A DNA stretch of 28,819 bases from Escherichia coli (GTDB taxonomy: Bacteria; Pseudomonadota; Gammaproteobacteria; Enterobacterales; Enterobacteriaceae): the NCBI RefSeq assembly GCF_003334315.1, contig NZ_QOWR01000060.1; one strand, written 5' to 3'. A program made the translations under genes and the position numbers. How positions within the stretch are numbered: the first letter of the stretch is position 1; every line of letters begins with the position of its first letter. The notes beneath the pieces are model-generated. The model was given only the letters and a program-made list of their open reading frames with translations. It was not told the origin of the DNA and made no database searches. Positions 12,467-23,827 of this stretch are shown piece by piece.

Positions 12467-12496
12467 GGTTTCTCTTTCCTGTGGACCGATGCAAGA

Positions 12497-12523
12497 TTTT
12501 CGGCCTGGAAAGCAAAAACTTTA
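12497..12523 (-). promoter_or_regulatory. Sigma-28 (FliA) class III promoter of tsr
   Basis: The minus strand reads TAAAGTTT-N11-GCCGAAAA, a near-perfect match to the FliA consensus TAAAGTTT-N11-GCCGATAA, about 30 bp upstream of the tsr ATG. Confidence 0.85.
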
Positions 12524-12550
12524 TGAAAAGGTGTAACCCGCTATCCATGG

Positions 12551-12568
12551 AAAAACCAGGCGCTGGTT
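12551..12568 (-). terminator. Rho-independent terminator of hpaR
   Basis: The minus strand reads AACCAG-cgc-CTGGTT followed by TTTTT, 17 bp downstream of the hpaR stop. Confidence 0.65.
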
Positions 12569-12584
12569 ATCAGATACTAAAAAG

Positions 12585-13031
12585 TTATTCATTATCGCCC
12601 GGGATGTCTTCTTGTCGGGAATTACCCAGAGCAATAAATTCCTCTAACAGATGGGTTAACTGTTGCATTTTCTCGGCAGTAAACTGAGCTTCAATCTGCC
12701 GATAGGCTTCTTCAATCTGTGTCTGAGCGCGGTTATACAGCGCCTGCCCCTCTTTGGTCAGCGAGATATAGAGCTTCCGCTGATCATTGATCGGCTTTAA
12801 TCGCAACACTAAACCGTCGCGTTCCATCCGCGTAAGGATCCCGGTCAGGCTTGGGCGCAAAATGCAGGCGCGATACGCCAGATCGTGAAAATCCATTGAT
12901 GGGCTTTCCGCCAGAATACGCACGATGCGCCACTGTTGCTCAGTCAAATTATGCCGTTTAACGATTGGGCGAAAATAACTCATCGCCGCTTCTCGCGCCT
13001 GGAGCAACGCAATGGTTAGAGAGTCGTGCAT
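12585..13031 (-). CDS. hpaR: HpaR, MarR-family repressor of the homoprotocatechuate (hpa) meta-cleavage operon
   Basis: ORF 12585..13112; start at the internal ATG (MHDSLTIALLQAREAAMSYF...), about 148 aa; MarR-type winged helix; divergent from hpaG. Confidence 0.9.
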   Translation of the reverse strand: MHDSLTIALLQAREAAMSYFRPIVKRHNLTEQQWRIVRILAESPSMDFHDLAYRACILRPSLTGILTRMERDGLVLRLKPINDQRKLYISLTKEGQALYNRAQTQIEEAYRQIEAQFTAEKMQQLTHLLEEFIALGNSRQEDIPGDNE

Positions 13032-13302
13032 TATCTTTCCCCTGAAAAATTCAAAATCATTAATATAGAAACAGTTAATCATCACGTTACCGTGACTGCG
13101 CTGCCCCTGCAATTCTTCATTTTATCAAAATTGAGCATATTTTGTTAACTTGATGATATTTAATATTTTATTATCTTTAAATGTAAATAGTTTGTTAATT
13201 AGATCACATTTACATCACTTACTTTTGCCAAACTACGCAATCGGGAATAAAAGTAATCATTAACATATTAATGATTAAGATGATCGAATCCGAGGAGTGG
13301 TA
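13032..13302. promoter_or_regulatory. hpaR / hpaG divergent promoter region with three palindromes (candidate HpaR operators)
   Basis: AT-rich. Perfect inverted repeat TAATCATTA-acatat-TAATGATTA at 13254..13277, just upstream of the hpaG SD; TGTAAAT...ATTTACA at 13182..13214; TCACG-ttac-CGTGA at 13082..13095. Confidence 0.6.
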
Positions 13303-21419: not shown

Positions 21420-21669
21420 AAATCCCTTAGCCTTAACGGGAAACCAGGCACCACCTGCTATTCCCCTTTCTCCGCCTGGAGCAAGGGGATTTAGTAACGT
21501 TAAAAATCGCTAAAAGCGACCTCGATCACAAAACCGTACCCGACCTGAAAAGTACCAGCCATTGTCCCAAAAGTGTCTTCCCGTAATCGCCCCTGCAAGC
21601 TTCAATTGAATAACAAAAACAACACACAAAATTAACAATCGTATTCCGATTAATACTGTAGAGGTCGAT
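21420..21669 (+). promoter_or_regulatory. hpaBC promoter region (HpaA-activated), including a hairpin after hpaA
   Basis: 250-bp intergenic region; hairpin TCCCCTT...AAGGGGA at about 21452..21482; palindrome TCGCT-aaa-AGCGA at about 21507..21519; A-rich tract AACAAAAACAACACACAAAATTAACAA upstream of the hpaB SD. Confidence 0.5.
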
Positions 21670-23232
21670 ATGAAACCAGAAGATTTCCGCGCCAGTACCC
21701 AACGTCCGTTCACCGGGGAAGAGTATCTGAAAAGCCTGCAGGATGGTCGCGAGATCTATATCTATGGCGAGCGAGTGAAAGACGTCACCACTCATCCGGC
21801 ATTTCGTAATGCGGCAGCGTCTGTTGCCCAACTGTACGACGCGCTACACAAACCGGAGATGCAGGACTCTCTGTGTTGGAACACCGACACCGGTAGCGGC
21901 GGCTATACCCATAAATTCTTCCGCGTGGCGAAAAGTGCCGACGACCTGCGCCAGCAACGCGACGCCATCGCTGAGTGGTCACGCCTGAGCTATGGCTGGA
22001 TGGGCCGTACCCCAGACTACAAAGCCGCTTTCGGTTGCGCACTGGGCGCGAATCCGGGCTTTTACGGTCAGTTCGAGCAGAACGCCCGTAACTGGTACAC
22101 CCGTATTCAGGAAACTGGCCTCTACTTTAACCACGCGATTGTTAACCCACCGATCGATCGTCATTTGCCGACCGATAAAGTGAAAGACGTTTACATCAAG
22201 CTGGAAAAAGAGACTGACGCCGGGATTATCGTCAGCGGTGCGAAAGTGGTTGCCACCAACTCGGCGCTGACTCACTACAACATGATTGGCTTCGGCTCGG
22301 CACAAGTGATGGGCGAAAACCCGGACTTCGCACTGATGTTCGTTGCGCCAATGGATGCCGATGGCGTGAAATTAATCTCCCGCGCCTCTTATGAGATGGT
22401 CGCGGGTGCTACCGGCTCGCCGTACGACTACCCGCTCTCCAGCCGCTTCGATGAGAACGATGCGATTCTGGTGATGGATAACGTGCTGATCCCATGGGAA
22501 AACGTGCTGATCTACCGCGATTTCGATCGCTGCCGTCGCTGGACAATGGAAGGCGGTTTTGCCCGTATGTATCCGCTGCAAGCCTGTGTGCGCCTGGCAG
22601 TGAAATTAGACTTCATTACGGCACTGCTGAAAAAATCACTCGAATGTACCGGCACCCTGGAGTTCCGTGGTGTGCAGGCCGATCTCGGTGAAGTGGTGGC
22701 GTGGCGCAACACCTTCTGGGCATTGAGTGACTCGATGTGTTCAGAAGCGACGCCGTGGGTCAACGGGGCTTATTTACCGGATCATGCCGCACTGCAAACC
22801 TATCGCGTACTGGCACCAATGGCCTACGCGAAGATCAAAAACATTATCGAACGCAACGTTACCAGTGGCCTGATCTATCTCCCTTCCAGTGCCCGTGACC
22901 TGAACAATCCGCAGATCGACCAGTATCTGGCGAAGTATGTGCGCGGTTCGAACGGTATGGATCACGTCCAGCGCATCAAGATCCTCAAACTGATGTGGGA
23001 CGCCATTGGCAGCGAATTTGGTGGTCGTCACGAGCTGTATGAAATCAACTACTCCGGTAGCCAGGATGAGATTCGCCTGCAGTGTCTGCGCCAGGCACAA
23101 AGCTCCGGCAATATGGACAAGATGATGGCGATGGTTGATCGCTGCCTGTCGGAATACGACCAGAACGGCTGGACTGTGCCGCACCTGCACAACAACGACG
23201 ATATCAACATGCTGGATAAGCTGCTGAAATAA
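21670..23232 (+). CDS. hpaB: HpaB, 4-hydroxyphenylacetate 3-monooxygenase, oxygenase (FADH2-utilising) component
   Basis: 520 aa (MKPEDFRASTQRPFTGEEYLKSLQDGREIYIYGERVKDVTTHPAFRN...). Confidence 0.95.
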   Translation: MKPEDFRASTQRPFTGEEYLKSLQDGREIYIYGERVKDVTTHPAFRNAAASVAQLYDALHKPEMQDSLCWNTDTGSGGYTHKFFRVAKSADDLRQQRDAIAEWSRLSYGWMGRTPDYKAAFGCALGANPGFYGQFEQNARNWYTRIQETGLYFNHAIVNPPIDRHLPTDKVKDVYIKLEKETDAGIIVSGAKVVATNSALTHYNMIGFGSAQVMGENPDFALMFVAPMDADGVKLISRASYEMVAGATGSPYDYPLSSRFDENDAILVMDNVLIPWENVLIYRDFDRCRRWTMEGGFARMYPLQACVRLAVKLDFITALLKKSLECTGTLEFRGVQADLGEVVAWRNTFWALSDSMCSEATPWVNGAYLPDHAALQTYRVLAPMAYAKIKNIIERNVTSGLIYLPSSARDLNNPQIDQYLAKYVRGSNGMDHVQRIKILKLMWDAIGSEFGGRHELYEINYSGSQDEIRLQCLRQAQSSGNMDKMMAMVDRCLSEYDQNGWTVPHLHNNDDINMLDKLLK

Positions 23233-23249
23233 CGCAGCAGGAGGTTAAG

Positions 23250-23762
23250 ATGCAATTAGATGAACAACGCCTGCGCTTTCGTGACGCGATGGCCAGCCTG
23301 TCGGCAGCGGTAAATATTATCACCACCGAGGGCGACGCCGGACAATGCGGGATTACGGCAACGGCTGTCTGCTCGGTCACGGATACACCACCGTCGCTGA
23401 TGGTGTGCATTAACGCCAACAGTGCGATGAACCCGGTTTTTCAGGGCAACGGTAAGTTGTGCGTCAACGTCCTCAACCATGAGCAGGAACTGATGGCACG
23501 CCACTTCGCGGGCATGACAGGCATGGCGATGGAAGAGCGTTTTAGCCTCTCATGCTGGCAAAAAGGTCCGCTGGCGCAGCCGGTGCTGAAAGGTTCGCTG
23601 GCCAGTCTTGAAGGAGAGATCCGCGATGTGCAGGCGATTGGCACACATCTGGTGTATCTGGTGGAGATTAAAAACATCATCCTCAGTGCAGAAGGTCACG
23701 GACTTATTTACTTTAAACGCCGTTTCCATCCGGTGATGCTGGAAATGGAAGCTGCGATTTAA
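23250..23762 (+). CDS. hpaC: HpaC, NADH:flavin oxidoreductase component of 4-HPA 3-monooxygenase
   Basis: 170 aa (MQLDEQRLRFRDAMASLSAAVNIITTEGDAGQCGITATAVCSV...), flavin-reductase fold; follows hpaB with an SD. Confidence 0.93.
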   Translation: MQLDEQRLRFRDAMASLSAAVNIITTEGDAGQCGITATAVCSVTDTPPSLMVCINANSAMNPVFQGNGKLCVNVLNHEQELMARHFAGMTGMAMEERFSLSCWQKGPLAQPVLKGSLASLEGEIRDVQAIGTHLVYLVEIKNIILSAEGHGLIYFKRRFHPVMLEMEAAI

Positions 23763-23769
23763 GCTCCAG

Positions 23770-23804
23770 CCCCTTCACGCATTCGTCGAAGGGGTATTTT
23801 TATT
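23770..23804 (+). terminator. Rho-independent terminator of hpaBC
   Basis: CCCCTTC-acgcattcgtc-GAAGGGG followed by TATTTTTATT. Confidence 0.8.
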
Positions 23805-23827
23805 GTGATCTCAATCACATATCCACC

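Follow-up and report, generated by a model that had tools for sequence, protein, structure and literature searches.

Gene content and control of the hpa cluster

The stretch of DNA analysed here (the window; 28,819 nt of contig NZ_QOWR01000060.1, assembly GCF_003334315.1) is a segment of the Escherichia coli chromosome that runs from a truncated yjjQ to yjiA and carries, between tsr and btsT, the hpa cluster for the catabolism of 4-hydroxyphenylacetate (4-HPA) through homoprotocatechuate. A first-pass annotation of the sequence had listed a complete set of eleven genes (hpaR, hpaGEDFHI, hpaX, hpaA and hpaBC) and had taken them for an island inserted between two genes that are neighbours in K-12. 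The gene set proved correct in all its members, each of them intact. The insertion found little support: with a probability of about 0.8, the cluster is an old syntenic block of enterobacteria extending from tsr to btsT-yjiX-yjiA, and the K-12-type state is a deletion.

All eleven open reading frames (ORFs) start with ATG, are preceded by a plausible ribosome-binding site and are free of internal stops. Inspection for frameshifts or missing parts that might have been overlooked returned none, and no ORF was interrupted by a frameshift, a stop or an insertion sequence (IS). Each of the eleven proteins passed the curated threshold of the corresponding NCBIfam equivalog model with near-full coverage of the profile, and HpaB, HpaG and HpaI could be aligned end to end with the solved E. 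coli structures 6qyh, 1gtt and 2v5j. The closest complete counterpart, strain AHM9C68I, is collinear with window positions 382–28208 at 99.97% identity (9 mismatches); its RefSeq annotation of the hpa genes agrees with the ORF list and flags no pseudogene.

Table 1. Genes and other features in and around the hpa cluster, with window coordinates
Feature	Position	Strand	Description
tsr	10802-12466	minus	serine chemoreceptor, 554 residues; NCBIfam PRK15041 full length, 1225 bits
tsr sigma-28 (FliA) promoter	12497-12523	minus	TAAAGTTT-N11-GCCGAAAA; outside the extra DNA, also in K-12
hairpin downstream of hpaR	12551-12568	minus	AACCAG-CGC-CUGGUU and short U-run; doubtful terminator
hpaR	12585-13031	minus	MarR-type repressor of the meta-cleavage operon; TIGR02337 equivalog, 201 bits against a cut-off of 121
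divergent hpaR/hpaG control region	13032-13302		two related AT-rich boxes, 200 bp apart
hpaG	13303-14592	plus	bifunctional isomerase/decarboxylase; NF011750 residues 1-429 of 429; PDB 1gtt full length
hpaE	14589-16055	plus	5-carboxymethyl-2-hydroxymuconate semialdehyde (CHMS) dehydrogenase; TIGR02299, 739 bits against 638
hpaD	16057-16908	plus	homoprotocatechuate 2,3-dioxygenase; TIGR02298, 550 bits against 316
hpaF	16918-17298	plus	5-carboxymethyl-2-hydroxymuconate (CHM) isomerase; NF011605 full length; C/B-type allele
hpaH	17366-18169	plus	2-oxo-hept-4-ene-1,7-dioate hydratase; TIGR02312 residues 1-267 of 267
hpaI	18180-18968	plus	4-hydroxy-2-oxoheptanedioate aldolase; TIGR02311; PDB 2v5j and 4b5x full length
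REP-like palindrome pair	18988-19084		hpaI-hpaX gap; repeat family D1; -55.4 kcal/mol, z = -5.0
hpaX	19143-20519	plus	4-hydroxyphenylacetate permease (major facilitator superfamily); TIGR02332, 894 bits against 615
hpaA	20529-21419	plus	AraC/XylS-type activator of hpaBC (role: PMC7180172); TIGR02297, 390 bits against 275
hpaA-hpaB intergenic region	21420-21669		presumed HpaA-dependent hpaBC promoter, by position and literature
hpaB	21670-23232	plus	oxygenase component; TIGR02310, 1110 bits; PDB 6qyh residues 1-520
hpaC	23250-23762	plus	flavin reductase component; NF012030 residues 1-170 of 170
strong intrinsic terminator after hpaC	23769-23803	plus	-16.1 kcal/mol, z = -3.2, none of 200 shuffles as good
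TGTGA-N6-TCACA palindrome	23804-23819		CRP-site-like, upstream of btsT; kept by all intact alleles examined
ERIC-type repeat	24013-24139		between the btsT control region and start codon; K-12 has 16 unrelated bp there
btsT (yjiY)	24155-26305	plus	pyruvate/H+ symporter, right flank; from annotation

Residue 379 of HpaB is an arginine, the variant that permits the use of 3-hydroxyphenylacetate (3-HPA) besides 4-HPA (PMC7201708). From this residue together with the eleven intact genes, growth on both 4-HPA and 3-HPA is predicted for the strain, and this predicted phenotype is the practical yield of the analysis. The strain also carries HpaBC, an enzyme widely used in biocatalysis.

The arrangement of the genes agrees with the published layout of two operons, hpaBC under HpaA and hpaGEDFHI under HpaR, together with hpaX (PMC7201708, PMC7180172). 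The region between the divergent hpaR and hpaG contains AT-rich boxes at 13055–13078 and 13255–13278 (repeat family D17), the second of which includes TTAA-N4-TTAA. A similar type of motif and a similar two-site spacing have been described for HpaR sites (PMC7180172), and both boxes are candidate HpaR operators. The region between hpaA and hpaB is 98.8–100% identical to those of strains W, C and B.

The steps of the pathway are well established for E. coli W and C and are applied to the window by analogy. HpaX would take up 4-HPA or 3-HPA, and the AraC-family regulator HpaA would sense either compound and switch on hpaBC. HpaB, supplied with reduced flavin by HpaC, would then hydroxylate the substrate to homoprotocatechuate, which in turn would relieve the repression of hpaGEDFHI by the MarR-family protein HpaR. 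The products HpaD, E, F, G, H and I would finally convert homoprotocatechuate by meta-cleavage into pyruvate and succinic semialdehyde.

The cluster is the classical, already known hpa cluster of E. coli and represents ordinary biology; specialists will find nothing surprising in it. The W cluster, described by Prieto and colleagues in 1996 and by Galan and colleagues in 2003 (both as cited in PMC7180172), corresponds to the genes known as hpc/hpa in E. coli C and B. The first-pass annotation had recognised a layout of the B/W/C type, and order, orientation and spacing are indeed those of W (KO11FL), C (ATCC 8739) and B (ATCC 11303); the W sequence hpaRGEDFHIXABC (GenBank Z37980) has the same eleven genes, spaced and oriented alike, between tsr and btsT. 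For HpaR, E, D, H, X, A, B and C, the RefSeq protein accessions of AHM9C68I are identical to those of the W derivative KO11FL, and most of its hpa proteins have accessions in common with W, C and B strains. The 392-bp spacer between hpaC and btsT, with its ERIC element, is also found in W. The window differs from W in hpaF, which is of the C/B type and only 81.8% identical at the DNA level, and in the gap between hpaF and hpaH, which is 43 bp shorter; the other hpa genes are 96.5–99.6% identical to W per gene. W further carries a penicillin acylase gene beyond yjiA, which is not in the window. A position of this gene between hpaC and btsT in W was rejected, the W-derived record placing it beyond yjiA.

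At hpaF (window 16800–17400) there is a dimorphism, with one allele in the window, C and B and another, of about 82% DNA identity, in W; the longer, W-like spacer between hpaF and hpaH (+43 bp) occurs in many E. coli genomes. A second observation concerns Pseudocitrobacter vendiensis (L010), to which window positions of about 13800–16800 (the 3' half of hpaG, hpaE and hpaD) are 95–98% identical and those of about 17400–18900 (hpaH-hpaI) 90–95% identical; for the rest of the cluster and btsT the identity is 80–88%. This tract looks like a recent intergeneric recombination inside the syntenic cluster.

The tsr-btsT site in K-12 and across E. coli

The absence of the cluster from K-12 was borne out by alignment to the tsr-yjiY junction, where tsr and btsT are neighbours only 377 bp apart. 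Homology to K-12 ends on the left at 12527/12528, the last K-12-homologous and the first hpa-specific base, 4 bp upstream of the -35 element of the tsr promoter; up to this point, K-12 positions 4801–5019 (L002) and window positions 12309–12527 are 99.5% identical. On the right, homology returns weakly at 23804 and clearly at 23849. The hpa-specific DNA thus covers 12528–23803, or 11,276 bp, and stands in place of 88 bp in K-12. The extent given in the first-pass annotation (12467–23805) was correct within 2 bp at its end; its start took in 61 bp of the tsr leader and promoter region, which K-12 has as well.

The right end of the hpa-specific DNA is the intrinsic terminator that follows hpaC, the 3' arm and T-run of which are common to the EC332-type allele. 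It is directly followed by the TGTGA-N6-TCACA palindrome. Since this palindrome is kept in all intact alleles examined, we assign it to the control region of btsT, where it is a candidate CRP site; yjiY/btsT is known to be under CRP control (PMC5431176).

At the left end, the sigma-28 promoter of tsr that had been annotated at 12497–12523 is real. The consensus TAAAGTTT-N11-GCCGATAA lies upstream of flagellar or chemotaxis class 3 genes, and 15 of its 16 specified bases are matched, with one mismatch and a spacer of 11; it is the sole such site in the window, where 0 are expected by chance. The promoter is conserved in Enterobacter, Lelliottia, Citrobacter and a divergent Escherichia. Its distance from the hpaR stop codon is about 28 nt in Enterobacter cloacae, Enterobacter sichuanensis and Lelliottia, 61 bp in E. 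coli and roughly 45–140 nt in the other three genomes with tsr beside hpaR.

The tight left boundary that had been pointed out is likewise real, the hairpin downstream of hpaR lying 27 bp from the promoter. Because the sigma-28 promoter also follows the hpaR stop in other genera, this boundary is an old conserved gene junction, to which a constraint of the tsr promoter on the reach of deletions may add, and not an insertion scar. The deletion edge may lie 4 bp from the -35 element because a closer loss would destroy the expression of tsr. As to the hairpin itself, the first-pass annotation had called it the hpaR terminator: stem and T-run exist, and a function as terminator is marginal and not conserved. 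With three G-C pairs in its 6-bp stem, the hairpin reaches -5.4 kcal/mol; the fold of the 60-nt context is not more stable than that of shuffled sequences (z = -0.67), and a terminator scan of the window did not include it among the reported sites. The stem is weakened in the divergent Escherichia (L011) and absent from Enterobacter and Lelliottia. By energy, z-score, scan and conservation, a role as true insulator is unsupported.

Over 5426 complete E. coli genomes, four alleles at the tsr-btsT site together account for 99.2%. The hpa cluster is present in 2073 (38.2%), where the meta-cleavage operon is found once and on the chromosome. Half of the genomes (2754; 50.8%) carry the 88-bp filler of the K-12 type, which is present only in K-12-type genomes and also in ATCC 25922, a strain that we take to belong to phylogroup B2. 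An allele of about 1 kb with a hypothetical ORF, typical of O157:H7, occurs in 363 genomes (6.7%), and one of about 6 kb, encoding a MurR-type regulator, a sodium:solute symporter, RidA, an N-acyl-D-amino-acid deacylase and an amino-acid deaminase, in 195 (3.6%). All four diverge from each other within 0–4 bp of the tsr -35 element. With 2754 of 5426 carriers and a filler that varies between 90 and 100% identity among them, the empty allele is old and widespread and no peculiarity of K-12. A guess that O157:H7 carries hpa was rejected, the 1-kb allele being present there.

The proposal that the layout indicates the strain background is therefore weak: the cluster occurs in 38% of complete E. 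coli genomes, and the flanks of the cluster are very K-12-like here. The 6-kb, D-amino-acid-like allele and the hpa allele share part of the hpaC terminator, namely its 3' arm and T-run; the 6-kb allele also carries an Enterobacter-like tsr leader. In strain BS-04, of which the assembly is noisy, a separate deletion of 10.6 kb has kept the hpaR side and joined window position 13238 to 23849, taking out the TGTGA-N6-TCACA palindrome.

Ancestral block or inserted island

One representative genome per species was scanned with HpaH, loci with 10-kb flanks were fetched, and these were then searched by tblastn with all window proteins. The complete order tsr-hpaR-hpaGEDFHI-hpaX-hpaA-hpaBC-btsT-yjiX-yjiA was found in Enterobacter cloacae (L038), E. 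asburiae (L040) and E. sichuanensis (L051), as well as in Enterobacter sp. RIT418 (L049) and Citrobacter sp. 18056 (L054). In Lelliottia nimipressuralis (L044) the order is identical up to yjiX, where the fetched locus ends, and the representative of a divergent Escherichia species (L011) shows lgoT-tsr-hpaR onwards, with tsr DNA 89% identical to the window. The right half, hpaC-btsT-yjiX-yjiA, is present in several Klebsiella, Raoultella, Citrobacter and Pseudocitrobacter. At the protein level, the hpa products are 71–96% identical to those of these genera, and the values for the flanking Tsr (86%), BtsT (94%) and YjiA (88%) fall in the same range.

The sequence between tsr and btsT contains, by annotation, hpa genes only, with no integrase, transposase or other mobility gene; the two IS1 copies lie at the window ends, at distances of 12 kb and 4.5 kb from the cluster. 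A tRNA scan of the window was negative, and no pair of direct or inverted border repeats (att, target duplication) spans 12528 and 23803. Per gene, the cluster is 96.3–99.9% identical to W, C and B except for hpaF in W (81.8%), and the flanking genes are 97.3–100% identical. Synteny across genera, the lack of mobility genes, tRNA and repeats, a divergence inside the cluster like that of the flanks, and the separate deletion in BS-04 therefore point to an ancestral block that was lost anciently or repeatedly; loss of hpa in K-12 has already been proposed (PMC7201708, citing Diaz et al. 2001).

Several observations weigh against this conclusion. The G+C content of the cluster is 54.5% compared with 50.2% in the left and 52.8% in the right flank; neighbouring core genes are similar to the cluster (tsr 54.3%, btsT 56.4%). 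Within Escherichia, the scan of representative genomes picked up L011 only; the other named species yielded no close HpaH. The presence of hpa in the genus is thus patchy, and re-acquisition by homologous recombination is conceivable. The 88-bp filler of K-12 holds no detectable hpa relic, comparison with the window and with all fetched loci having given nothing, and a deletion cannot be read from this scar. Finally, the Salmonella cluster has hpaBC inverted and neither tsr nor btsT in the fetched flanks.

In part, these observations would equally be expected if ancestors of the B/W/C type had acquired the 11.3-kb cluster horizontally and K-12 had preserved the original empty site, as the first-pass annotation supposed: K-12 and 62% of complete E. 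coli genomes lack hpa, its G+C content exceeds the 50–53% of the flanks, most other Escherichia species lack a close HpaH in their representatives, and hpa clusters are found on Klebsiella plasmids. We nevertheless consider such an acquisition highly improbable. The order tsr-hpa-btsT and the promoter junction recur in at least four other genera, mobility genes, tRNA and border repeats are all absent, the K-12 site is not empty, being occupied by 88 bp with no relation to the hpa allele, and divergence within the cluster equals that outside. An insertion is thus largely refuted by cross-genus synteny, and what stands of the earlier claim is the complete hpa set, its B/W/C-type layout and its lack in K-12.

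A different possibility concerns the recent history of this strain: the cluster may be ancestral in the family and the allele seen here may have been imported from another E. coli lineage by homologous recombination in the flanks. Compared with K-12, lgoR is 100% and lgoT 99.6% identical and yjiX falls within 99.6–100%, whereas tsr (98.4%) and btsT (98.1%), which lie beside the cluster, are more diverged. In its affinities the cluster is mosaic, with strain C nearest in hpaG and hpaB and strain W in hpaE; the 95–98% tract in common with Pseudocitrobacter vendiensis points to recombination within it, and four alleles segregate at the site. Higher divergence beside the cluster is, however, also predicted by an old linked presence/absence polymorphism, so that K-12-like outer flanks with diverged tsr and btsT fit either history. 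Import into this lineage is therefore a tentative reading, which we regard as possible and on balance unlikely.

With the reading as an ancestral block, the direction of change is corrected: the interval between tsr and btsT would be an old multi-allelic presence/absence site at which K-12 has the loss allele, and "island absent in K-12" is therefore not to be read as "inserted". Like a classical genomic island (tRNA-linked, integrase-bearing), the cluster is variably present, at one fixed site that also hosts alternative gene sets. Unlike such islands, it lacks an integrase, a tRNA and att repeats and shows no clear break in composition, and its content is syntenic across genera. The clusters of Enterobacter, Lelliottia, Klebsiella and Raoultella resemble that of the window in gene order and in having tsr and/or btsT-yjiX-yjiA as neighbours, and differ from it in DNA identity (70–90%); in Klebsiella and Raoultella, no tsr lies beside hpaR in the fetched flanks. 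Two lineages of HpaX are found in these otherwise similar clusters, as seen when loci L019, L023, L025, L029, L038–L040 and L044 were contrasted with L016, L017 and L037. One has about 88–91% protein identity to the window (Klebsiella, Citrobacter, Kluyvera, Salmonella) and the other about 68–72% (Enterobacter, Raoultella, Lelliottia).

The conserved head-to-tail pairing of hpaR and tsr might in principle be functional. Because the sigma-28 promoter lies near the hpaR stop and a convincing terminator is absent, transcripts from the homoprotocatechuate-responsive hpaR promoter could read through into tsr, an idea to which we give little chance of being right. Sensing of 3,4-dihydroxymandelate, a catechol acid, has been reported for Tsr (PMC6194112). 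If read-through occurred, chemotaxis to catecholic acids of host or plant origin would be coupled to a cluster that degrades the closely related 3,4-dihydroxyphenylacetate. Loss of hpa in K-12-type genomes would then have broken this link.

Repeats, IS1 ends and minor variation

The ERIC-type repeat upstream of btsT has a core that matches the complement of the ERIC1R primer at 20 of 22 positions and is predicted to fold into a long hairpin (z = -5.6). The median number of ERIC copies per genome is 9 across all 5426 E. coli genomes. A copy at least 95% identical to the one in the window was found in 2012 genomes and also occurs in W, C and B; because this count is near the number of hpa-positive genomes, the element seems to be tied to the hpa allele. 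An effect on the btsT leader, for which control by CsrA has been reported (PMC5431176), is possible. Besides the REP-like pair between hpaI and hpaX, a second REP-type pair lies at 26312–26400 in the gap between btsT and yjiX; it is absent in K-12 and partial in W and B. No RNA family reached the gathering threshold in an Rfam scan of the whole window.

The window begins and ends in IS1 fragments of the same orientation (1–381 and 28364–28819), the left one interrupting yjjQ at 381/382. The last 66 nt are exactly the first 66 nt, so that on paper a circle of 28,753 bp with about one IS1 can be drawn. The ends probably reflect a contig that stops in a repeat. That they instead bound a mobile unit, either a circle of 28.75 kb that was excised or a composite transposon that moves hpa, would agree with the orientation of the fragments, the exact overlap and their sum of about one IS1, and with the fact that the IS1-yjjQ junction was not found in any complete E. 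coli genome of the collection. Short-read contigs, however, routinely end in repeated IS elements and seem to circularise through them, the 27.8 kb between the fragments is normal chromosomal sequence that runs collinear with AHM9C68I at 99.97% identity, and hpa is single-copy and chromosomal in the 2073 genomes, which makes an IS1-bounded unit very unlikely.

Transport of the E. coli cluster by ordinary plasmids was also considered and found no support, the full-length E. coli hits being a mislabelled record of chromosome size (4.8 Mb) or replicons of 0.37–1.2 Mb. Among the plasmid records with hpa clusters (H139, H140, H142 and H143), the E. coli-type cluster is found on replicons of 373 kb and 404 kb labelled as plasmids, and the Klebsiella-type cluster on K. 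pneumoniae plasmids of 37 kb and 270 kb.

Two minor differences were noted outside the cluster. AHM9C68I has an ISKpn26 element (IS5-like; L001 28710–29905) at the position corresponding to window 28208/28209, where the window has none. In Tsr, codons 518–524 (window 10895–10915) encode seven consecutive glutamines compared with four in K-12 and B, giving a protein of 554 instead of 551 residues, and this long form is common to W and C.

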